Positions 2,404 to 61,322 of a stretch of 64,000 bases of DNA are shown in pieces. The position numbers were made by a program, and so were the translations under genes. The notes below the pieces were generated by a model. It made no database searches and was not told where the DNA came from. It saw only the letters and a list, made by a program, of their open reading frames with translations. Source of the stretch: Escherichia phage vB_EcoM_SP1; sequence record MT682709.1. One strand, written 5' to 3'. Positions within the stretch are counted from its first letter, which is position 1. Every line of letters starts with the position of its first letter.

Positions 2404-3342
2404 ATGTACAATATTAAATGCCTGACCAAAAACGAACAAGCTGAAATTGTTAAACTGTATTCAAGTGGTAATTATACCCAACAGGAATTGGCTGATTGGC
2501 AAGGTGTATCGGTTGACACAATCCGTCGTGTTTTGAAAAATGCTGAAGAAGCTGAACGCTCTAAAGTTACCATTAGCGGTGATATTACAGTTAAAGTTAA
2601 TAACGATACAGTTATTGCTCCAGTTGCTAAATCTGACATTATTTGGAATGCATCTAAAAAATTCATTTCAATTACCGTTGATGGCGTAACTTATAACGCA
2701 ACTCCTAATACTCATTCAAACTTCCAGGAAATTCTTAATCTGCTTGTTGCAGATAAATTGGAAGAAGCGGCACAAAAAATTAATGTTCGTCGCGCTGTTG
2801 AAAAATATATTTCCGGTGATGTTCGAATTGAAGGTGGAAGCCTGTTCTATCAAAATATTGAATTGCGGTCTGGTTTAGTTGATCGTATTCTCGATTCGAT
2901 GGAAAAAGGTGAAAACTTTGAATTTTATTTTCCGTTCTTGGAAAATCTGTTGGAAAACCCAAGCCAAAAAGCAGTATCTCGACTCTTTGATTTCTTGGTA
3001 GCAAACGATATTGAAATTACAGAAGATGGTTACTTCTATGCTTGGAAAGTAGTTCGCAGCAATTACTTTGACTGTCATTCAAATACTTTTGATAACAGCC
3101 CTGGTAAAGTAGTTAAAATGCCACGTACTCGTGTGAATGACGATGATACACAAACTTGTTCTCGTGGTCTGCATGTGTGTTCTAAATCTTATATTCGTCA
3201 CTTTGGCAGTTCAACCAGTCGAGTTGTAAAAGTTAAAGTACATCCTCGCGATGTAGTATCAATTCCGATTGATTACAATGATGCTAAAATGCGTACCTGC
3301 CAATACGAAGTAATTGAAGACGTTACTGAACAATTTAAATAA
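2404..3342 (+). CDS. rIIB: rIIB protein
   Basis: 312 aa, same length as T4 rIIB; synteny after rIIA. Confidence 0.88.
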   Translation: MYNIKCLTKNEQAEIVKLYSSGNYTQQELADWQGVSVDTIRRVLKNAEEAERSKVTISGDITVKVNNDTVIAPVAKSDIIWNASKKFISITVDGVTYNATPNTHSNFQEILNLLVADKLEEAAQKINVRRAVEKYISGDVRIEGGSLFYQNIELRSGLVDRILDSMEKGENFEFYFPFLENLLENPSQKAVSRLFDFLVANDIEITEDGYFYAWKVVRSNYFDCHSNTFDNSPGKVVKMPRTRVNDDDTQTCSRGLHVCSKSYIRHFGSSTSRVVKVKVHPRDVVSIPIDYNDAKMRTCQYEVIEDVTEQFK

Positions 3343-3933: not shown

Positions 3934-4423
3934 CTTAACTAGTGAAATGAAGGTCAAAATTGCTGATACAGCAAGATACTCTTTAAAACAAAATCCTAAT
4001 CAGGATAAAGCAGAAGTCATCGAAAGATGCCGTATCGCTGTGTACGCAGAATTTTTTGTAGCAGACTGGCTGAGCGGGTATGTTAACAAAGGCCAAGAGG
4101 ATGTTAATGACCCGTATACATACGCATGGGATGTATTGGCACACCCAAGATACTGCGGGCTTCGTGTAGAAGTTAAGACACATCAAACTGACTCACGTTG
4201 GATTTCGGTAACAACCGGATGCAGCGGAGAGTATCCATACGGTTCTGGAATAAATCTAGGGCCCATTCTGAATCATCAGGTCGCTGACTGTATAATTATA
4301 TTCAACACTAAAGAAATTCATCCAGGTGTCATCCAGTACACTCCGAAGTTCATCGGTGATAGAGAAGACCTTCGTAAGGTTGTAAGAAAAAGCAACTACA
4401 ACGGATGGTATCTTTCCATTTAA
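3866..4423 (+). CDS. denB: endonuclease IV (dC-specific ssDNA endonuclease)
   Basis: 185 aa, matching T4 EndoIV length; synteny between rIIB and ndd. Confidence 0.7.
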   Translation: MQKTNPGLQRLFQIPTFTLSNSDLTSEMKVKIADTARYSLKQNPNQDKAEVIERCRIAVYAEFFVADWLSGYVNKGQEDVNDPYTYAWDVLAHPRYCGLRVEVKTHQTDSRWISVTTGCSGEYPYGSGINLGPILNHQVADCIIIFNTKEIHPGVIQYTPKFIGDREDLRKVVRKSNYNGWYLSI

Positions 4424-4438
4424 AAATTTCACAAGACA

Positions 4439-4470
4439 GTTTACATACCACAAGGACCGTGGTACTATAC
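4439..4470 (+). promoter_or_regulatory. T4-type early promoter (GTTTACA -35, TACTAT -10, 17-bp spacer)
   Basis: GTTTACA at 4439, TACTAT at 4463; conserved leader ACAACTATCAACTGATAC shared with promoters at 8300 and 24968. Confidence 0.5.
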
Positions 4471-4490
4471 AACTATCAACTGATACGGAT

Positions 4491-4709
4491 TTGGAGAATA
4501 AAATGTTTACTACAGCTGAATTAAAACGAGCAAAAGCTAAGAAAGGACAAGGAAAATATAAAGCTGAATTAGTTAAAGAACTTCAGTTTGCTGAGGCTGA
4601 ATTGAATTCAATGATTATTCAAAATGTTCCAGAAACTGAAATTGCTCTTAAGCGTATTGCGAATAAGTGTCTTCGTGATGCAATCGTCGATCTTTTAGCG
4701 GATTATTGA
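4491..4709 (+). CDS. hypothetical protein, 72 aa
   Basis: ORF downstream of early promoter, RBS GGAGAAUAAA. Confidence 0.55.
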   Translation: MENKMFTTAELKRAKAKKGQGKYKAELVKELQFAEAELNSMIIQNVPETEIALKRIANKCLRDAIVDLLADY

Positions 4710-4978
4710 GTAAAATGAAATTTAAATTTTATTACGCTAAACATAAAATAACTGATGAGTTTGTGTCAGTTGAATATTCTAGCGATGATGAAGGTATGAT
4801 TTATACTCGCTTGGGACTATCGCATTGGGAGTCTGATACGCCTTATTTTTCAACTCCCGAAGAAATTACACGCTTAGTTAATGGTCATATGAATGACCAC
4901 TGGGATGTAATTCTTTCAGATAGTCTTAAAGCGGCTATTAATAGTAATGAAATGAAAATCGCTGAGATTGAACTATGA
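4706..4978 (+). CDS. hypothetical protein, 90 aa
   Basis: ATGA start/stop overlap with upstream ORF. Confidence 0.55.
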   Translation: MSKMKFKFYYAKHKITDEFVSVEYSSDDEGMIYTRLGLSHWESDTPYFSTPEEITRLVNGHMNDHWDVILSDSLKAAINSNEMKIAEIEL

Positions 4979-5061
4979 GTTCATTATGGTGGTGTTTTGT
5001 TTGGTTAATTAGTATTCCATTAATTTGTTTAACATTTACTTTTGTGATGAGGTTATTATGA
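4975..5061 (+). CDS. tiny hydrophobic peptide, 28 aa (putative single-pass membrane peptide)
   Basis: ATGA-coupled to upstream ORF; sequence MSSLWWCFVWLISIPLICLTFTFVMRLL. Confidence 0.35.
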   Translation: MSSLWWCFVWLISIPLICLTFTFVMRLL

Positions 5062-5156
5062 AAATTTTGAATTCTATACTTATTGCTTGTGCATGGTGGG
5101 TTGCGCAAGTTTCGGCAGTAGTGATTGGTATTCACATTTATTACGAATATTTTTAA
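5058..5156 (+). CDS. tiny hydrophobic peptide, 32 aa
   Basis: ATGA-coupled; MKILNSILIACAWWVAQVSAVVIGIHIYYEYF. Confidence 0.4.
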   Translation: MKILNSILIACAWWVAQVSAVVIGIHIYYEYF

Positions 5157-5163
5157 AAAAGTT

Positions 5164-5218
5164 GTTTACAAGACTGTTCCTCTGTGGTATTATTATCCTA
5201 TCAACTACGGAGGAACAG
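5164..5218 (+). promoter_or_regulatory. early promoter with 9-bp inverted repeat bracketing the -10 (promoter-early stem-loop-like)
   Basis: GTTTACA at 5164, TATTAT at 5188; arms CTGTTCCTC 5174-5182 and GAGGAACAG 5210-5218. Confidence 0.4.
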
Positions 5219-5221
5219 AAA

Positions 5222-5335
5222 ATGAAAAAGATTGTTAAAGCTATATGGAATGTAGTTATAATACTAGTAGTTTTGAGTATATTCCCAATCGTTTTAATGA
5301 TTGATGTATTAAACGCTTACTTTGGATTTATGTGA
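5222..5335 (+). CDS. tiny hydrophobic peptide, 37 aa
   Basis: RBS GGAGGAACAGAAA then ATG; MKKIVKAIWNVVIILVVLSIFPIVLMIDVLNAYFGFM. Confidence 0.45.
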   Translation: MKKIVKAIWNVVIILVVLSIFPIVLMIDVLNAYFGFM

Positions 5336-5342
5336 GGAAAAT

Positions 5343-5540
5343 ATGAAGCGTAAACGCAGTGCTTTTACATTTATGGAATGGTTTTTCGATAATATTTTTC
5401 CGGCTTTATTCATTTTCATGTTGATTTTCGCCTTGGGTTCAGTTGTGGTTGGAATCTATTTGATGGCAGTTGTCGGAATGGATATTCACCAAAATGGTTT
5501 GAAATCTGTGGTTGAAACAATTTGGAATGGTGTAAAATAA
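5343..5540 (+). CDS. small membrane protein, 65 aa
   Basis: RBS GAGGAAAAU; basic N-terminus followed by long hydrophobic segment. Confidence 0.5.
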   Translation: MKRKRSAFTFMEWFFDNIFPALFIFMLIFALGSVVVGIYLMAVVGMDIHQNGLKSVVETIWNGVK

Positions 5541-5647
5541 TGAATTTACTAAGCATTTGGTTTTATATTCTTGTATTTTACATTGGTGCAAATTTCCCAT
5601 ATTGGATGGGATGGTCAACAACTGCATTTGGATTTTATACTCCCTGA
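5540..5647 (+). CDS. tiny hydrophobic peptide, 35 aa
   Basis: TAATG overlap with upstream ORF; aromatic-rich hydrophobic sequence. Confidence 0.4.
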   Translation: MNLLSIWFYILVFYIGANFPYWMGWSTTAFGFYTP

Positions 5648-5655
5648 GGTGAATT

Positions 5656-5871
5656 ATGAAAATTTTTAAAGATGTAAAGGTCGGTGAAATTTTTTGCTTA
5701 GATAATGGTGATCAGTTAATTCGTATTTCACCTCTTAAGAGCACTAGCGAGAAAATGACAGTTAACGCTACTTTAGCAAATAACAGTAATGAACGTTTCT
5801 GTATTGAAAATGATACTGAAACTTATACTGTAGAAGAATTCTGGGAATTAAGTGTCGACTGCGACGATTAA
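5656..5871 (+). CDS. hypothetical protein, 71 aa
   Basis: RBS GAGGUGAAUU; followed by hairpin GGCCGTATG-AATA-CATACGGCC. Confidence 0.55.
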   Translation: MKIFKDVKVGEIFCLDNGDQLIRISPLKSTSEKMTVNATLANNSNERFCIENDTETYTVEEFWELSVDCDD

Positions 5872-5930
5872 TTTATCGGCCGTATGAATACATACGGCCT
5901 TGGAGTAGAAAATAATTAGAGGAAATTAAC

Positions 5931-6386
5931 ATGAAATATATGACTGTTACTGATCTGAATAATGCAGGCGCAACTGTTATTGGTACAATCAAGGGCGGTG
6001 AATGGGTTTTTGGAACTCCGCATAAAGACATTTTGTCTAACCCTGGATTTTACTTTTTAGTGAGCAAATTTGGTGGTCCATTTGATAGTCCGTGTGTATC
6101 TGCACGATTTTATGTAGGTAATCAGCGTTCTAAGCAAGGATTCAGTGCAGTTCTAAGTCATATTCGCCAGCGTCGGTCTCAGCTTGCGCGTACTATTGCA
6201 AATAACAATGTTCCATACACAGTATTTTATCTACCTGCTTCTAAGATGAAACCTCTGACGACGGGATTTGGAAAAGGTCAGTTAGCTTTAGCGTTTACTC
6301 ATAATCATCATTCTGAGTATCAAACGCTTGAAGAAATGAATCGTATGTTGGCTGATAACTTTAAATTTGTTTTGCAGGCATATTAA
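5931..6386 (+). CDS. ndd: nucleoid disruption protein Ndd
   Basis: 151 aa as T4 Ndd; lies immediately upstream of stp. Confidence 0.8.
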
Positions 6387-6466
6387 TGAGTAATTTCCAT
6401 AATGAACATGTGATGCAGTTCTATCGTAACAATCTTAAAACTAAAGGCGTCTTCGGACGCCAGTGA
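6386..6466 (+). CDS. stp: Stp peptide (suppressor of three-prime phosphatase; modulator of host EcoprrI/PrrC)
   Basis: 26-aa translation [26 protein letters not shown] matches T4 Stp as recalled; TAATG overlap with ndd. Confidence 0.85.
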
Positions 6467-6473
6467 GGAAAAT

Positions 6474-6632
6474 ATGAATATCGCAAAATTATTAGGAGTT
6501 ATTTCATTTATTTGTTGGATAGTAGCATGTGTTTTAACTATCTGTATTGATGTCAGCAGCGTGTTTTCGCAAGCTTTAGCTCAGGGTATGTGTGCATATT
6601 TAACATTTGCGTTGTTATCTACTAATGATTAA
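6474..6632 (+). CDS. ac: small membrane protein, acriflavine-resistance gene ac-like
   Basis: 52-aa hydrophobic ORF between stp and gene 52 as in T4. Confidence 0.6.
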   Translation: MNIAKLLGVISFICWIVACVLTICIDVSSVFSQALAQGMCAYLTFALLSTND

Positions 6633-6765
6633 GAAAATCTTGGGCTATTCATTAGCCCTTGCTACTTTATTGGTAGCGCTATATTATGGAGTAATGTTCG
6701 GATTAATTCAAGTCGTGCTTTTCATTTCTGATGTTATTATGGCACTACATTCACTAGTATGGTAA
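6625..6765 (+). CDS. small hydrophobic protein, 46 aa (52.1-like)
   Basis: ORF overlapping ac stop, hydrophobic, immediately upstream of gene 52. Confidence 0.45.
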   Translation: MIKKILGYSLALATLLVALYYGVMFGLIQVVLFISDVIMALHSLVW

Positions 6766-6769
6766 ATTT

Positions 6770-8098
6770 ATGCAACTGAATAATCGCGATTTAAAAAGTA
6801 TCATTGATAATGAAGCACTGGCTTATGCTATGTACACGGTTGAAAATCGTGCTATTCCAAATATGATTGATGGATTTAAGCCAGTTCAACGATTTGTTAT
6901 TGCTCGAGCTCTTGATTTGGCGCGAGGAAATAAAGATAAGTTTCACAAGCTCGCTTCTATTGCAGGTGGTGTAGCTGACCTTGGATATCATCATGGTGAA
7001 AACTCTGCGCAAGACGCGGGGGCTTTGATGGCTAACACTTGGAATAATAACTTTCCTTTGTTAGATGGTCAAGGAAACTTTGGTTCTCGTACCGTTCAAA
7101 AAGCAGCAGCAAGTCGTTATATTTTTGCTCGTGTAAGTAAAAATTTCTATAACGTATATAAAGATACTGAATATGCTCCGGTACATCAAGATAAAGAACA
7201 CATTCCGCCTGCTTTCTATTTGCCTATTATTCCTACTGTTCTTCTTAATGGTGTTTCCGGTATTGCAACTGGTTATGCAACTTACATTCTTCCTCATAGT
7301 GTTTCTTCTGTCAAGAAAGCTGTACTACAAGCTCTTCAAGGAAAGAAAGTAACTAAACCGAAGGTAGAATTCCCAGAATTTCGCGGTGAAGTCGTTGAAA
7401 TTGACGGTCAATATGAAATTCGTGGAACGTACAAGTTTACTTCACGAACTCAAATGAATATCACTGAGATTCCGTATAAGTATGATCGTGAAACTTATGT
7501 GAGTAAAATCTTAGACCCGCTTGAAGATAAAGGCTTCATTACGTGGGATGATGCTTGTGGTGAGCATGGTTTTGGCTTTAAAATTAAATTCCGCAAAGAA
7601 TACTCTTTGAGTGATAACGAAGAAGAACGCCATGCAAAAATTATGAAAGACTTTGGGTTGATTGAGCGTCGTTCCCAAAATATTACAGTCATCAACGAGA
7701 AAGGAAAGTTACAAGTTTACGATAACGTAGTTGATTTAATTAAAGACTTCGTTGAAGTTCGTAAAACTTATGTCCAAAAGCGAATTGATAACAAAATCAA
7801 AGAAACTGAATCAGCATTTCGTTTAGCCTTTGCCAAGGCACATTTCATTAAGAAAGTAATTTCAGGTGAAATTGTTGTGCAGGGTAAAACTCGCAAAGAA
7901 CTGACCGAAGAACTTTCTAAAATTGAGATGTATTCTTCTTATGTCGATAAACTAGTCGGAATGAATATTTTTCATATGACTTCCGACGAAGCAAAGAAAC
8001 TTGCTGAAGAAGCTAAAGCTAAGAAAGAAGAAAACGAATATTGGAAAACTACTGATGTAGTTACCGAATACACCAAAGATTTAGAGGAAATCAAATGA
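6770..8098 (+). CDS. 52: DNA topoisomerase II medium subunit gp52
   Basis: 442 aa as T4 gp52; GyrA-like N-terminus with PVQRFV motif and TGYAT. Confidence 0.95.
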   Translation: MQLNNRDLKSIIDNEALAYAMYTVENRAIPNMIDGFKPVQRFVIARALDLARGNKDKFHKLASIAGGVADLGYHHGENSAQDAGALMANTWNNNFPLLDGQGNFGSRTVQKAAASRYIFARVSKNFYNVYKDTEYAPVHQDKEHIPPAFYLPIIPTVLLNGVSGIATGYATYILPHSVSSVKKAVLQALQGKKVTKPKVEFPEFRGEVVEIDGQYEIRGTYKFTSRTQMNITEIPYKYDRETYVSKILDPLEDKGFITWDDACGEHGFGFKIKFRKEYSLSDNEEERHAKIMKDFGLIERRSQNITVINEKGKLQVYDNVVDLIKDFVEVRKTYVQKRIDNKIKETESAFRLAFAKAHFIKKVISGEIVVQGKTRKELTEELSKIEMYSSYVDKLVGMNIFHMTSDEAKKLAEEAKAKKEENEYWKTTDVVTEYTKDLEEIK

Positions 8099-8249: not shown

Positions 8250-8280
8250 GGGAGAGCCTCGGCTCTCCCTTTTTATTTTA
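8250..8280 (+). terminator. rho-independent terminator
   Basis: GGGAGAGCC-TC-GGCTCTCCC hairpin followed by TTTTTATTTT. Confidence 0.65.
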
Positions 8281-8299
8281 AAATTTTTTTCACAAAACG

Positions 8300-8329
8300 G
8301 TTTACAACCAAAGCATACTGTTGTACTAT
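8300..8329 (+). promoter_or_regulatory. T4-type early promoter upstream of motA
   Basis: AT-rich UP region, GTTTACA at 8300, TACTAT at 8324; upstream 35 nt nearly identical to the cassette at 24939. Confidence 0.55.
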
Positions 8330-8370
8330 ACAACTATCAACTACTGATACAGAATTACGGAGATTAGAAA

Positions 8371-24946: not shown

Positions 24947-24967
24947 TTAAAATTTTTTCACAAAACA

Positions 24968-24997
24968 GTTTACATTCTTGTCATTCCATGGTACTAT
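24968..24997 (+). promoter_or_regulatory. T4-type early promoter
   Basis: GTTTACA at 24968, TACTAT at 24992; near-identical upstream AT-rich block to promoter at 8300. Confidence 0.55.
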
Positions 24998-25041
24998 ACA
25001 ACTATCGGCAATACTGCTGATGATTAAAAGAGGAAAATAAT

Positions 25042-25316: not shown

Positions 25317-25697
25317 ATGTATACTGGTAGAAAGTATGAACTTGTTCCAAGACTTATTGATACATTTATTAATTATAGCCCACGTTCTAATTCATCAATA
25401 GTTAAAGCTATTCGAGATAATGGCGGATGGTTTGAAGTTAAAGAAGTTTCTGTCGCTAATGGATATAAAGCAGTAAAACACATTGAATGCGCAAATGGAA
25501 AGCATTTTTACCTCAAAGATAGACTTTTAGAAATTTGTGAAGACGAATTTCATTGTTTTCGTGAGTATAAAGAACCGACTTCTGAAGAAGATGAAGTCGA
25601 AGACAAGATTTCTGGCGTAACAAAAATTCACTGCATTGTAGACGAAAACAATGTAGATGAAATCATTGAACTTTTGCGAAAAACTTTCAAAAAGTAG
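25317..25697 (+). CDS. hypothetical protein, 126 aa
   Basis: ORF with RBS AUGAGGAAAACAC. Confidence 0.55.
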   Translation: MYTGRKYELVPRLIDTFINYSPRSNSSIVKAIRDNGGWFEVKEVSVANGYKAVKHIECANGKHFYLKDRLLEICEDEFHCFREYKEPTSEEDEVEDKISGVTKIHCIVDENNVDEIIELLRKTFKK

Positions 25698-25726
25698 TTT
25701 ACAGTAGGGTAGTAGTGTGATACTAT
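25697..25726 (+). promoter_or_regulatory. early promoter with imperfect inverted repeat around -10
   Basis: GTTTACA at 25697, TACTAT at 25721. Confidence 0.45.
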
Positions 25727-25751
25727 TACCCTATCAACTAAGGAGAATAAA

Positions 25752-34460: not shown

Positions 34461-34514
34461 GTTTACAAGTCCCTCGTGTTGTGTTATAGTAGTCTTACTG
34501 ACATAACATGAGGA
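34461..34514 (+). promoter_or_regulatory. early promoter cassette, copy 1 of a perfect 54-bp repeat
   Basis: GTTTACA at 34461, TATAGT at 34485; identical to 48746-48799. Confidence 0.55.
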
Positions 34515-41428: not shown

Positions 41429-41455
41429 AGGACTCCTTCGGGAGTCCTTTTTTAT
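41429..41455 (+). terminator. rho-independent terminator
   Basis: GGACTCC-TTCG-GGAGTCC hairpin plus TTTTTTATTTT. Confidence 0.65.
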
Positions 41456-41477
41456 TTTCCAAAGATTGCATAAAGTT

Positions 41478-41510
41478 GTTTACAGTATGGTTCCTTTGTG
41501 ATAGTATTAT
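41478..41510 (+). promoter_or_regulatory. early promoter
   Basis: GTTTACA at 41478, TAGTAT/TATTAT -10; TTTGTG/CACAAA inverted repeat around -10. Confidence 0.45.
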
Positions 41511-41534
41511 CTTACACAAACAAAGGAGAATAAA

Positions 41535-46288: not shown

Positions 46289-48385
46289 ATGATGGAACTA
46301 ATTACAGAATTATTTGACGAAGATACTACTCTTCCGATTACAAACTTAAATCCAAAGAAGAAAATACCACAAATTTTTTCAGTTCATGTTGATGACGCAA
46401 TTGAACAACCAGGTTTTCGTTTATGTACCTATACATCTGGAGGTGATACTAATCGCGATTTAAAGATGGGCGATAAAATGATGCATATTGTTCCTTTTAC
46501 ATTAACCGCTAAAGGTTCAATTGCTAAATTGAAAGGTCTTGGTCCAAGCCCAATTAATTATATCAATTCGGTTTTTACTGTTGCAATGCAAACAATGCGT
46601 CAGTATAAAATTGATGCCTGTATGCTCCGTATTCTTAAGTCTAAAACTGCTGGTCAAGCTCGACAAATTCAAGTTATTGCTGATAGACTTATCCGTAGTC
46701 GTTCAGGTGGCAGATACGTCCTTCTTAAGGAACTCTGGGATTATGATAAAAAGTATGCATATATTCTTATACATCGCAAAAATGTATCACTAGAAGACAT
46801 TCCAGGGGTTCCGGAAATTAGTACCGAGCTCTTTACTAAAGTTGAATCGAAGGTCGGTGATGTTTATATCAATAAAGATACTGGAGCTCAAGTAACTAAA
46901 AATGAGGCAATTGCAGCATCTATTGCACAAGAAAATGATAAACGTTCTGACCAAGCTGTAATCGTTAAAGTTAAAATTTCCCGTAGAGCAATTGCACAAA
47001 GTCAATCATTAGAGTCTTCTAGATTTGAAAGTGAATTATTCCAGAAGTATGAATCTACAGCAGCTAATTTTAATAAACCAGCTACTGCACCTTTAATTCC
47101 CGAAGCAGAAGAAATGAAAATTGGAATTAATTCATTAGCTTCTAAAACTAAGGCAGCAAAAATCATTGCCGAAGGAACTGCAGATGAACTTCATTATGAC
47201 TATAAATTCTTTTCAAAAAGTGAGGTTAATGAAGTTTCTGAAAAAATTAAAGATGTAATTCTTAATGCGATTAAAAATGAACCGACTACTTCAATAAAAT
47301 GTTTAGAGAAATACGCAGCAGCTGTTAATCAATTATTTGAAGAATATAAAGATACTTGGCTTGATAAACATAATAAAACCCGTAAAGGACAGCCAGATGA
47401 AGTCTGGGAAGAAATAACTAAAAATTCCTGGAACGCGACAAAAACTAAATTCCTCAAAAGAATGATTTATAGTTTCTCTGGAATTGGTGCAGGTCCAATG
47501 ATTGATATTACTATTGCCCGTGATGGTTCTAAATATACTCCATCACAAAAGCGTGGCATTAGAGAGTATTGCGGTTCAGGATATACTGACATCAATAATC
47601 TTCTTTTGGGTCGTTATGATCCAGAACGTTATGAAGTAATGAGTGAAAAAGAAATTGAAGCTGCTATAACTAATTTAGATTCTGCTTTTGAAAATGGTGA
47701 TCGTATACCAGAAGGCATTACAGTTTATCGTGCTCAAAGTATGACTGCTCCTATATACGAAGCACTAGTTAAAAATAAAGTATTCTATTTCAGAAATTTT
47801 GTATCTACTTCTTTAACTCCTATCATTTTTGGACGTTTTGGAATTACACATGCTGGTATTGGTCTTTTAGAACCAGAATCTCGCAATGAATTAACAGTTG
47901 ATAAAAATGAAGAAGGAATAACTATTAATCCAAACGAAATAAGAGCGTATAAAGAAAATCCTGAATACGTTAAAGTTCAAATAGGATGGGCAATTGATGG
48001 AGCTCATAAAGTTAATGTTGTATATCCAGGAAGTCTCGGAATAGCAACAGAAGCTGAAGTTATTCTACCGCGTGGATTGATGGTCAAAGTTAATAAAATA
48101 ACTGATGCTTCTAATAATGACGGAACAACATCTAATAATACAAAACTCATTCAAGCTGAAGTTATGACTACGGAAGAGCTCACCGAATCGGTAATCTATG
48201 ATGGAGACCATTTAATGGAAACTGGTGAATTGGTTGCAATGACAGGTGATATTGAAATAGAAGACAGAGTTGACTTTGCATCATTTGTTTCATCAAACGT
48301 TAAACAGAAAGTAGAATCATCTCTTGGAATTATTGCGTCTTGCATAGATATTACAAACATGCCTTACAAGTTCGTTCAAGGATAA
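46289..48385 (+). CDS. alt: ADP-ribosyltransferase Alt (head-packaged)
   Basis: 698 aa; N-terminus MELITELFD with I-x-E prohead-protease site; position after gene 30. Confidence 0.85.
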   Translation: MMELITELFDEDTTLPITNLNPKKKIPQIFSVHVDDAIEQPGFRLCTYTSGGDTNRDLKMGDKMMHIVPFTLTAKGSIAKLKGLGPSPINYINSVFTVAMQTMRQYKIDACMLRILKSKTAGQARQIQVIADRLIRSRSGGRYVLLKELWDYDKKYAYILIHRKNVSLEDIPGVPEISTELFTKVESKVGDVYINKDTGAQVTKNEAIAASIAQENDKRSDQAVIVKVKISRRAIAQSQSLESSRFESELFQKYESTAANFNKPATAPLIPEAEEMKIGINSLASKTKAAKIIAEGTADELHYDYKFFSKSEVNEVSEKIKDVILNAIKNEPTTSIKCLEKYAAAVNQLFEEYKDTWLDKHNKTRKGQPDEVWEEITKNSWNATKTKFLKRMIYSFSGIGAGPMIDITIARDGSKYTPSQKRGIREYCGSGYTDINNLLLGRYDPERYEVMSEKEIEAAITNLDSAFENGDRIPEGITVYRAQSMTAPIYEALVKNKVFYFRNFVSTSLTPIIFGRFGITHAGIGLLEPESRNELTVDKNEEGITINPNEIRAYKENPEYVKVQIGWAIDGAHKVNVVYPGSLGIATEAEVILPRGLMVKVNKITDASNNDGTTSNNTKLIQAEVMTTEELTESVIYDGDHLMETGELVAMTGDIEIEDRVDFASFVSSNVKQKVESSLGIIASCIDITNMPYKFVQG

Positions 48386-48388
48386 ATC

Positions 48389-48774
48389 ATGGAACTTATT
48401 GCAGAATTATTTGACGGCGCTTCGGCGCCGGTTGTTAACTTAAATCCTAAGCATAAAATACCTCAAATTTTTGCTATTCAAGCCGGTGAAGAAAGCGTAC
48501 TTCCTGGATTTAGATTTTGTACATACACCTCTGACGGTGATACAAATAAAACGTTAAACCAGGCGATAAAATGATGCATATCGTAATGATAGGTGTTAAT
48601 GAGAAACTATCATTAGTTAAGCTTAAAAACTTGAGTGGAAATCAAATTGGTGTCATTAATGCTGTTTTTGATACTGCTCTTCAAACAATGAAACAGTATA
48701 AAATCGACGCATGCCTATTCCGCGTACTAAAAAGTTCAAAATGTAGTTTACAAGTCCCTCGTGTTGTGTTATAG
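48389..48774 (+). pseudogene. frameshifted, truncated paralog of the alt N-terminal region (two ORFs of 61 and 67 aa)
   Basis: MELIAELFD..CTYTSDGDTN and MMHIV..QTMKQYKIDACLFRVLK align with Alt residues ~1-125; a 1-nt indel before AAAATGATGCAT separates the two frames. Confidence 0.55.
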
Positions 48775-48799
48775 TAGTCTTACTGACATAACATGAGGA
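48746..48799 (+). promoter_or_regulatory. early promoter cassette, copy 2 of the perfect 54-bp repeat
   Basis: identical to 34461-34514; GTTTACA -35 and TATAGT -10. Confidence 0.5.
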
Positions 48800-48806
48800 A
48801 CACAAA

Positions 48807-49097
48807 ATGAAATCTTCTTTACGCTTTTTAGGTCAAGAACTTGTAGTTGAAGGCGTTATTCCTGCTGATAATGCTTTTAACGAAGCGGTTTACGATGAAT
48901 TTATTAAAATTTTTGGAACAGATAAAAAGTTCGGAATTTTTCCTTCTGAAAATTTTTCAAAGCCAGAACAGACTGAAAGTATTTTTCAGGGTGTAGTAAC
49001 AGGTAAATTTGAGTCAGAAGCTCCGGTAAAAATTGAAGTTTATATTGAAGACAGTTTAGTTGCTTCAGTTGCTGCTTTTATTTCATTCCGTAAATAA
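48807..49097 (+). CDS. hypothetical protein, 96 aa
   Basis: ORF downstream of promoter cassette with RBS GAGGAACACAAA. Confidence 0.55.
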   Translation: MKSSLRFLGQELVVEGVIPADNAFNEAVYDEFIKIFGTDKKFGIFPSENFSKPEQTESIFQGVVTGKFESEAPVKIEVYIEDSLVASVAAFISFRK

Positions 49098-49102
49098 AAA
49101 TA

Positions 49103-49122
49103 TGGGGACCTTTCGGTCCCCA
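49103..49122. terminator. bidirectional terminator hairpin between convergent genes
   Basis: GGGGACC-TTTC-GGTCCCC with A/T tracts on both sides. Confidence 0.6.
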
Positions 49123-49125
49123 TTG

Positions 49126-50091
49126 TTATATTGCTCCTAATATTTTACTTTGCGAATTGACAATTCCTGTCATAGTATTAATATTTGAAATGCTTCCTGC
49201 AGTTCCCCCTAATCTACTAAGTCGTGAAAGCGAATTAGATAGTCCAGTAACACCTCCACTATTTCCGAGAACGCTTTGAATACCATTTATAGTAGCAGAT
49301 TCAAGCCATTCAAGGGCAGCTTGTCTATCAACTGCTCCAGCCTGCATGACTCTATAAGCGAAAGTAACATCAAATGTAGTTATTTGGTTATCTCCATCAT
49401 ACGATAACTCAGGAGCACTCACAGATGTTGGAATGCAGCCAGTGAACATCACCGCAGTATGTGGTAATCCATTGCGAGAATGAAGATTAACCTGAATATC
49501 TGCCTCGACATCTTGCGGTAAAGCACGCAATCCAGTTACTGGGTCTTGAACAGCGTTAACCCAGTCTTGCATTGCACGATAGTTACAAGCTTCTGAATCC
49601 ATTCTGAATGAAATAACCAAAGGGTCTAATTCTCTTCCAGTTATACGAATATTAGGAGAGTTATAGTTCCAGTCAGTTTCATAAGATAATCTATTTTCTG
49701 GCATTTTTACAGAGTATATCATCAATCCAGATGAGTTATATGCCATGTTAAAGAAGTCAATTAAATATGTACCAACTGTAAATGAGCCCAATAAACTTTG
49801 AACTGTACGTTGACTCATGGCGCCAATAAGATATTTACTAACCCCTGATTTTCTTATCAGTTTTTGTGTGCCAGCAGTAATTAGCGTGGTAATTCCCTGA
49901 TTAATATCGCCTTGAGTCAATCCTAACCAATCTGAATTTAGACCCAAGTTATTATAAGAAAAGTTGCTAATTGAACTTATCAACGAAGAGCTTTTAGTTG
50001 ATGGAGTTGTCGCAAAAACGCAGCTAAACATATTATTACGCTGGAAATCTGCGTTTATTGCTTGATTATTAAATTCCTCTAAAGAATACAT
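49126..50091 (-). CDS. 54: baseplate tail-tube initiator gp54
   Basis: 321 aa; synteny 54-48-29. Confidence 0.85.
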   Translation of the reverse strand: MYSLEEFNNQAINADFQRNNMFSCVFATTPSTKSSSLISSISNFSYNNLGLNSDWLGLTQGDINQGITTLITAGTQKLIRKSGVSKYLIGAMSQRTVQSLLGSFTVGTYLIDFFNMAYNSSGLMIYSVKMPENRLSYETDWNYNSPNIRITGRELDPLVISFRMDSEACNYRAMQDWVNAVQDPVTGLRALPQDVEADIQVNLHSRNGLPHTAVMFTGCIPTSVSAPELSYDGDNQITTFDVTFAYRVMQAGAVDRQAALEWLESATINGIQSVLGNSGGVTGLSNSLSRLSRLGGTAGSISNINTMTGIVNSQSKILGAI

Positions 50092-59903: not shown

Positions 59904-61322
59904 ATGGCTTTTACAGTTGATATAACTCCTAAAACACCAACAGGGGTTATTGATGAAACCAAGCAGTTTACTGCTACACCCAGTGGTGAAACTGGAGGTG
60001 GAACTATTACCTATGCTTGGAGTGTAGATAATGTTCCACAGGATGGAGCTGAAGCAACCTTTAATTATGTATTAAAAGGACCTGCTGGTCAAAAGACTAT
60101 TAAAGTGGTTGCAACAAATACAGTTCCAGAAGCTGAAGCTGAAACAGCTGAAATTAGTACAACTATCACAGTTCAAAATAAGACACAGACAACTACCTTA
60201 ACTGTAACTCCTAATAGTCCTCCAGAAGGAGTAATCGGAACAGCCGTTGAATTTACTGCTGCCTTAGCTTCACAGCCATCGGGCGCATCTGCTACGTATC
60301 AATGGTACGTTGACGGTTCTCCTGTGAGCGAAGCAACTTCTGCTACATTCAATTATACTCCTACTACAAGCGGAGTTAAAAAAATTAAGTGTGTAGCTCA
60401 AGTAACTGCGACAGATTATGATGCACTGAGCGTTACTTCTAATGAAGTATCATTGACGGTTAATAAAAAGACGCAGACAACTACCTTAACTGTAACTCCT
60501 GATAGTCCTGCTGCTGGAGTAATTGGAACCCCGGTTCAATTTACTGCTGCCTTAGCTTCTCAACCTGATGGAGCGTCTGCCACGTATCAGTGGTATGTAG
60601 ATGATTCACAAGTTGGTGGAGAAACTAACTCTACATTTAACTATACTCCAACTACAAGTGGAGTAAAAAGAATTAAATGCGTAGCCCAAGTAACTGCAGA
60701 AAATTATAATGAAAAGGAAGTTACTTCCAATGAAGTATCATTGACAGTTAATAAGAAGACAATGAATCCACAGATTGCATTGACTCCTCCTTCTATTAAT
60801 GTTCAGCAGGATGCTTCGGCTACATTTACTGCTAATGTTACTGGCGCACCTGAAGCAGCACAAATTACTTACTCATGGAAGAAAGATTCTTCTCCGGTGG
60901 AAGGGTCAACTAACGTATATACTGTTGATACCTCATCTATTGGAAGTCAAACTATTGAAGTTACTGCTGTCGTTGCAGCAACTGACTATGATAGTAAAAC
61001 AGTTAAAGCCACAGGTCAAGTTCAAGTGACTGATAAAGTTGCTCCGGAACCAGAAGGTGAATTACCTTATGTTCATCCTCTTCCACATCGTAGCTCAGCT
61101 TATATCTGGTGCGGTTGGTGGGTTATGGATGAAATCCAAAAAATGACTGAAGAAGGTAAAGATTGGAAAACTGAAGATCCAGATAGTAAGTACTACTTGC
61201 ATCGTTACACTCTTCAGAAGATGATGAAAGACTATCCAGAAGTTGATGTTCAAGAATCGCGTAATGGATACATCATTCATAAAACTGCTTTAGAAACTGG
61301 TATCATCTATACCTATCCATAA
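59904..61322 (+). CDS. hoc: highly immunogenic outer capsid protein Hoc with four Ig-like domains
   Basis: 472 aa; N-terminus and C-terminal capsid-binding region match T4 Hoc as recalled; two diverged ~96-aa tandem Ig-like repeats. Confidence 0.8.
   Translation: MAFTVDITPKTPTGVIDETKQFTATPSGETGGGTITYAWSVDNVPQDGAEATFNYVLKGPAGQKTIKVVATNTVPEAEAETAEISTTITVQNKTQTTTLTVTPNSPPEGVIGTAVEFTAALASQPSGASATYQWYVDGSPVSEATSATFNYTPTTSGVKKIKCVAQVTATDYDALSVTSNEVSLTVNKKTQTTTLTVTPDSPAAGVIGTPVQFTAALASQPDGASATYQWYVDDSQVGGETNSTFNYTPTTSGVKRIKCVAQVTAENYNEKEVTSNEVSLTVNKKTMNPQIALTPPSINVQQDASATFTANVTGAPEAAQITYSWKKDSSPVEGSTNVYTVDTSSIGSQTIEVTAVVAATDYDSKTVKATGQVQVTDKVAPEPEGELPYVHPLPHRSSAYIWCGWWVMDEIQKMTEEGKDWKTEDPDSKYYLHRYTLQKMMKDYPEVDVQESRNGYIIHKTALETGIIYTYP

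Follow-up and report, generated by a model that had tools for sequence, protein, structure and literature searches.

The alt.-1/alt.-2 region of a T4-like phage as a probable pseudogene remnant of a full-length second alt-like gene

Bacteriophage T4 packages and injects an RNA polymerase ADP-ribosyltransferase, Alt (gpAlt), from which the gp21 prohead protease cuts a 7-residue N-terminal propeptide (PMC9026906). In the T4 genome (AF158101) alt is followed by alt.-1, alt.-2, alt.-3, and gene 54, and the first two of these small ORFs (AF158101/NC_000866; UniProt P39495 and P39494) have already been annotated and interpreted. According to the notes of the T4 GenBank record, the beginning of alt was duplicated long ago, and this copy, now alt.-1 plus alt.-2, later acquired a stop codon and a new translation start; both have also been listed among the paralogous duplications of alt (Nolan et al., 2006; PMC1524935). 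A full-length alt duplicate has also been reported, in phage 44RR (Nolan et al., 2006; PMC1524935). This was the single paper that a literature search for alt.-1 and alt.-2 returned, and no paper on the intact second Alt-like gene of T6, T2, or RB14 was found in the literature searched. Among the sequence records, that of phage fPS-2 labels its own copy a 'putative pseudogene'. With regard to expression, a T4 time course classed the alt.-1 and alt.-2 transcripts as 'middle' and gave both products as 'NA' (not detected) at the protein level (PMC9697503). Short proteins easily escape shotgun proteomics. In the supplementary tables of that study, Alt.-1 has an LFQ intensity of 0 in all samples and Alt.-2 is not among the protein groups in the part of the table covered here (PMC9697503 supplements); Alt.-3 is described there as an early protein, abundant from early times (PMC9697503). 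Another system of relevance is that of the PeSL cassettes of T4-type phages, defined as a promoter with an overlapping stem-loop (Arbiol et al., 2010; PMC2839356). What is added here to the existing interpretation is the exact mechanism of a deletion, an intact orthologue, rather than alt, as the parent of the fragment, and a series of decaying alleles.

The DNA analyzed, referred to as the window, is a stretch of 64,000 nucleotides from Escherichia phage vB_EcoM_SP1 (MT682709.1). It comes from a Tequatrovirus (a T4-like phage), in the orientation opposite to that of the T4 reference, and presents the T4 genes from alt to gene 54 on the same strand and in the same order (Table 1). Positions 48200-49150 match 503 phage records at an identity of at least 90%, and over the 442 nt of segment 48389-48830 the window aligns without gaps with T4 at 97.7% identity and with phage VEc20 at 99.5%. 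The original prediction, made from the letters of the window, proposed that two short ORFs directly downstream of alt, at exactly the coordinates found here, were a truncated and frameshifted paralogue of the Alt N-terminus. In protein alignments the first ORF corresponds to Alt residues 1-62 (56% identity, E=5e-22) and the second to residues 63-117 (56% identity, E=5e-19), and a QTMKQYKIDAC block in the second ORF has its counterpart in the QTMRQYKIDAC of Alt. The N-terminus of Alt is thus recapitulated, although over about 117 residues and not the approximately 125 that had been proposed. The DNA alignment places a 1-nt gap between the two parts, as expected from the proposed 1-nt indel relative to alt. 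The two ORFs overlap by ATGA, and the second acquires 12 novel codons at its 3' end as a result of an out-of-frame deletion. Its TAG stop codon (48772-48774) is embedded in TATAGT (48770-48775), the -10 hexamer of a sigma-70-type promoter, in agreement with the claim that this ORF ends within a 54-bp promoter repeat. No domain was detected in either ORF by a Pfam search (E<=0.01), and an Rfam scan of 48200-49300 at E<=1 returned no RNA family, only two sub-threshold chance matches. Two minus-strand ORFs beneath the fragment (33 and 49 aa) were considered and discarded, with no supporting evidence.

Table 1. Features between alt and the first downstream terminator (window coordinates)
Feature	Position	Strand	Description
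alt, intact RNA polymerase ADP-ribosyltransferase	46289-48385	+	698-aa ORF from the first ATG; PF03496, E=4e-36; orthologue of T4 alt
alt.-1	48389-48574	+	61 aa; alt2 codons 1-53, followed by 8 codons out of frame and the stop TGA
Frameshift site	48548-48551	+	A4 run here; A5 (AAT AAA AAC) in intact alt2 and in unshifted truncated alleles
alt.-2	48571-48774	+	67 aa; starts at an internal ATG ATG; alt2 codons 62-116 in their ancestral frame
Deletion junction, sole remaining copy of the 9-bp direct repeat CTAAAAAGT	48727-48735	+	BLAST overlap versus T6
Last 11 nt of ancestral alt2, TCAAAATGTAG	48736-48746	+	Includes the original TAG at 48744-48746, now out of frame
54-bp early-promoter cassette for alt.-3	48746-48799	+	-35 GTTTAC 48746-48751; -10 TATAGT 48770-48775; long hairpin; SD GAGGA
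alt.-3 (DUF5498), intact downstream gene served by the cassette	48807-49097	+	PF17602, E=1e-64
Bidirectional terminator hairpin	49102-49123	.	First terminator downstream of alt

The homology with Alt is real, but the parent of the fragment is a separate paralogue that remains intact in T6. When the repaired fragment was used as a tblastn query, its residues 1-116 matched in one piece, at about 95% identity, a gene of T6, AR1, RB3, and many other Tequatroviruses that is annotated in those relatives as a second Alt-like ADP-ribosyltransferase. This gene is here named alt2; the records of RB14 and RB51 call the intact gene alt.-2. In T6 it occupies positions 4501-6558 of the extracted locus (L004), between alt and alt.-3, and its 2,058 nt code for 685 aa with a PF03496 ADP-ribosyltransferase domain at residues 416-620. 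Intact Alt2 and Alt are 41% identical overall. The 5' end of T6 alt2 is 95-96% identical in nucleotides to alt.-1, versus an amino acid identity of 56% between the fragment and Alt, and it is this comparison that identifies the T6-type gene as the true parent. The intact gene of T6, T2, RB14, and RB51 (e.g., YP_010067344.1) is found at the same locus as the fragment, is 95-96% identical to it over the first 348 nt, and is alike in start codon, SD, and downstream promoter. The comparison with relatives carrying a full second alt-like gene, which the original prediction had put forward, therefore does yield such a gene at the same locus in T6, T2, and RB14. The difference is that intact alt2 has its 2,058 nt, its ART domain, and evident constraint, whereas the window copy is frameshifted and devoid of codons 117-679; the PF03496 catalytic domain falls inside the deleted 1,699 bp. 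Alt is accordingly a paralogue, located upstream, and not the parent of the fragment. Its final codons harbor the SD of the fragment (AAGGA), its N-terminal ~117 residues are the homologous part, and both proteins begin with MELI(T/A)E, which in Alt is removed by gp21.

Intact alt2 is the common form. At least 80% of the query is covered in 402 of 497 matching phage records, and the allele with the deletion junction occurs in 90 of about 500 records, T4 included. Eight intact alleles (T6, T2, RB14, RB51, VIPECOOM03, fPS-65, and two IMG/VR contigs) indicate strong purifying selection on the gene, with a dN/dS of 0.043 overall and of 0.005 over codons 1-116, its most constrained part. Alleles were sampled from the GenBank phage collection, as the IMG/VR scans gave too few loci for a population analysis (two with the junction pattern and five with the T6 Alt2 protein). 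Two further observations concern the same family of genes. In phage Ge15 (PP359696.1, 48370-52103) the alt2 match comes in two pieces over 3.7 kb for a 2.06-kb query, which suggests that the locus contains either ~1.7 kb of inserted DNA or one more alt-like copy. The length of alt itself also varies, being 2,094-2,097 nt in the window, T6, ELT1, and VEc20 and 2,049 nt in T4, fPS-90, and PD112 (window 46289-48385 compared with 629-2677 of the T4 locus, L001).

The deletion can be placed to the base pair. By BLAST, window 48300-48735 corresponds to T6 4412-4848 (96.1% identity) and window 48727-49149 to T6 6539-6961 (97.6% identity), and the two blocks overlap by exactly 9 nt, CTAAAAAGT. In T6 this 9-mer is present twice, at alt2 nt 340-348 and 2039-2047, that is, 1,699 bp apart. 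Both copies are found in all eight intact alleles, the first of them with one mismatch (CTAAAGAGT) in two of the eight. The window retains codons 1-116 and the final 11 nt of the gene. Since 1,699 is 3x566+1, the loss is out of frame, and translation runs past the old stop codon into the -10 box. In the proposed course of events, the ancestral order would have been alt, alt2 (685 aa), early promoter, and alt.-3, as it still is in T6, T2, RB14, and ~80% of sequenced Tequatroviruses. Slippage or illegitimate recombination between the 9-bp repeats would have removed the 1,699 bp from codon 117 to near the end of the gene, the whole catalytic domain included. The loss of one A from the A5 run at codon 54 closed the first frame 8 codons later, giving alt.-1, and left an internal ATG ATG (ancestral M62 M63) open in the old frame as the start of alt.-2. 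Recombination obscures which of the lesions came first. T4 and the window have in common the 1,699-bp junction, the A4 -1 frameshift, the ATGA overlap, the stop in the alt.-3 promoter, and the position between alt and alt.-3/gene 54; they differ by point changes only, namely T5A, G49D, G83S, and P86Q in the window relative to the ancestral frame, and N17 changes and F111L in T4. An independent case is that of phage sutha (PV245934, about 3001-3128 of locus L029), in which alt2 was lost via a different deletion of ~1.95 kb, between 12-bp near-repeats (AAGTTCGT[T/C]CAA), one in the 3' end of alt and the other in that of alt2. Only the last 39 alt2 codons are left in this phage, and the end of alt is altered (…KFVQ* instead of …KFVQG*). 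Because this deletion is a separate one, alt2 has been lost at least twice.

Truncated alleles do not stop at the deletion. An alignment of 22 of them (the window, 19 GenBank phages, and two IMG/VR contigs) gives a series of states: the deletion alone, with an open 128-aa ORF, in four alleles (AV121, FL23, N2, and SYGD1); the deletion plus a GAA>TAA stop at codon 6 in three (fPS-90, fPS-2, and FL12); the deletion plus the A-run frameshift in nine, among them the window, T4, and VEc20; the deletion with both lesions in five, including ELT1, slur03, and Lutter; and, in PD112, both lesions together with a second 1-nt deletion (1/22). The A-run frameshift is thus present in 15 of the 22 alleles and the codon-6 TAA in nine. 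The latter was also found by exact match of a 60-nt probe in 43 records, all but one of which have no gene annotated there, the remaining one carrying a 'hypothetical protein'. Constraint is relaxed as well. Variants restricted to truncated alleles in the first 348 nt are 13 nonsynonymous to 10 synonymous, versus 1 to 27 in intact alleles (Fisher p=2.5e-5). The 13:10 ratio is still below the strictly neutral expectation of about 3.7:1 (binomial p=0.02), a shortfall that may come mainly from the small intact panel of eight, as inherited synonymous polymorphisms may be counted as private to the truncated alleles. It had also been considered that a second 5' lesion occurs in every truncated allele, as was the case in the first 18, which would hint at selection against the in-frame fragment; this idea was refuted by AV121, FL23, N2, and SYGD1, which came from a wider tblastn listing and have a clean 128-aa ORF with almost no amino acid change.

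The intact 685-aa orthologue in T6, T2, and RB14, the absence from the window of 1,699 bp and one A, and the additional stop codons, frameshifts, and relaxed constraint of truncated alleles agree with the decaying duplicate of the original prediction. We assign a probability of roughly 0.9 to the reading that 48389-48774 is the non-functional pseudogene remnant of a full-length tandem alt paralogue, alt2; neither the alt.-1 nor the alt.-2 product would then have a selected function. No terminator was found between alt and 49102, so that the remnant would be part of the alt transcript, as the 3' portion of the message, and is presumably co-transcribed with alt. Moreover, the original SD and ATG are kept, which may allow weak translation of Alt.-1.

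The best-surviving alternative, although an improbable one, is that the remnant is kept for useful small proteins, i.e., the 61-aa Alt.-1 with its gp21-type N-terminus, a peptide that would either be taken into the prohead or act as a competitor of Alt, and/or a translationally coupled 67-aa Alt.-2. Several features of the alleles are compatible with it. In the window, alt.-1 still begins with an ATG that has a good SD (AAGGA) 6 nt before it, and its L/I-x-E motif is undamaged, reading MELIAE where Alt and Alt2 have the similar MELITE; the peptide predicted after gp21 cleavage would be, for example, LFDGASAPVVNLNPK. The ATGA overlap could couple the two ORFs, 21 of the 22 truncated alleles have an uninterrupted alt.-2 frame, four have the clean 128-aa ORF, and the first 116 codons are precisely the most constrained part of the intact gene (dN/dS 0.005). 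However, the codon-6 stop of 9/22 sampled alleles, and of the 43 records mentioned above, converts the Glu of the gp21 motif into a stop codon in about half of the truncated alleles, and this speaks against selection for a peptide targeted to the head. Nine amino acid changes private to truncated alleles fall in the alt.-1 part (codons 1-53), PD112 disrupts alt.-2 as well, and neither ORF has a Pfam domain. The time-course proteomics of T4 gave no protein signal in the supplementary data, with zero intensity for Alt.-1. The small head-targeted peptide that the original prediction had offered as its other option is consequently unsupported, although this particular phage might make one. An equally doubtful variant is that the N-terminal module of ~116 residues of Alt2 retains a function of its own after truncation, as the 128-aa form in AV121-type phages and as the 61-aa Alt.-1 in the window, where it might act as a prohead-targeted peptide or as a competitor tuning the amount of packaged Alt.

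Still less probable is the wording of the T4 GenBank record taken literally, according to which duplication never extended beyond the first part of alt and the lineage never had a full-length second gene. It is stated in the notes of that record, and the inclusion of alt.-1/alt.-2 among the paralogous duplicates of alt by Nolan et al. (2006; PMC1524935) is in line with it. On the other hand, the 5' end of the intact T6 gene, which encodes 685 aa at the same position, is 95-96% identical to the fragment DNA, compared with ~56% protein identity between the fragment and Alt, the final 11 nt and the stop codon of alt2 are kept downstream of the 9-bp junction, and the intact form is the majority allele (402 records). 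The structure of the junction contradicts this reading, and all these data fit better with the truncation of a complete alt2 gene.

The promoter cassette adjacent to the remnant provides the basis for another unlikely alternative, also contained in the original prediction, namely that a mobile PeSL-type cassette was inserted into, or recombined with, a second alt gene and replaced its 3' part. The cassette, with its promoter TTTACA-17-TATAGT and an upstream TG, recurs as an exact 54-bp copy 14.3 kb away (34461-34514), in the interval from rnlA (gene 63) to alc and upstream of the latter; a match of this length appeared in none of 100 shuffled sequences. Its hairpin of ~18 bp (-23 kcal/mol, z=-4.67) extends from the spacer over the -10 box to the SD. 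This is the anatomy of a PeSL: a strong sigma-70-type promoter, a stem-loop over the -10 box, two copies in the genome, and an upstream stop codon in an A/T-rich stretch, as in the described cassettes (Arbiol et al., 2010; PMC2839356), which have been reported to mediate indels in T4-type phages (PMC2839356). Nevertheless, the same cassette stands directly after the alt2 stop codon in eight of eight intact alleles (ATGTAGTTTACA; …AAAATGTAGTTTACAAG…), and it has therefore replaced nothing. The breakpoint lies 11 nt upstream of it, at a 9-bp repeat unrelated to the cassette, so that the last 11 nt of alt2 with the stop codon are still present between junction and cassette in the window, and no alc-side sequence flanks the junction. 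In contrast to PeSL-mediated rearrangements, the cassette is here a bystander outside the deletion that truncated alt2. Finally, the A-run could be a programmed frameshift or transcriptional slippage site yielding a fused 128-aa alt.-1 plus alt.-2 product, as the two frames are one base apart at a homopolymer run, but this is the least credible option, given that the run has only four A, the site is polymorphic (in-frame A5 alleles) rather than conserved, many alleles have the codon-6 stop upstream of it, and there is no downstream stimulatory structure or Rfam match.

Some properties of the cassette deserve mention on their own. The SD GAGGA, shared by the alc and alt.-3 promoters, sits in the 3' arm of the hairpin; because of this location, transcripts reading through from upstream would mask the ribosome site, and those started at the internal promoter would not. 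The second copy of the cassette is also present in most Tequatrovirus records. The alt.-3 copy differs by a few bases between phages, yet both copies are identical within the window genome, an identity that may be due to gene conversion. Elsewhere in the window there is a family of 55-72-nt repeats (4427-4481, 5141-5212, 8277-8348, 24956-25010, 25674-25745, and 41455-41526) with conserved A-rich upstream tracts, GTTTAC, and TA(C/T)TAT -10 regions. All are typical T4 early promoters of the extended kind, and several of them have terminator hairpins just before. The window also contains a Hoc-like head decoration protein of 472 aa (59904-61322), T4 Hoc having 376 aa. Its gene carries a tandem duplication of 288 nt (96 aa) with 78% identity between repeats (60168-60743), equivalent to one extra Ig-like domain.

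Beyond annotation the finding matters little. The "duplication of the alt start" of T4 is refined to the stump of a complete second Alt-like enzyme, and in annotations alt.-1 and alt.-2 are better labelled pseudogene fragments than hypothetical proteins. T4 is devoid of an apparently functional, probably packaged enzyme that most T-even phages (T2, T6) encode, and it is this intact Alt2, rather than the remnant, that is worth studying.
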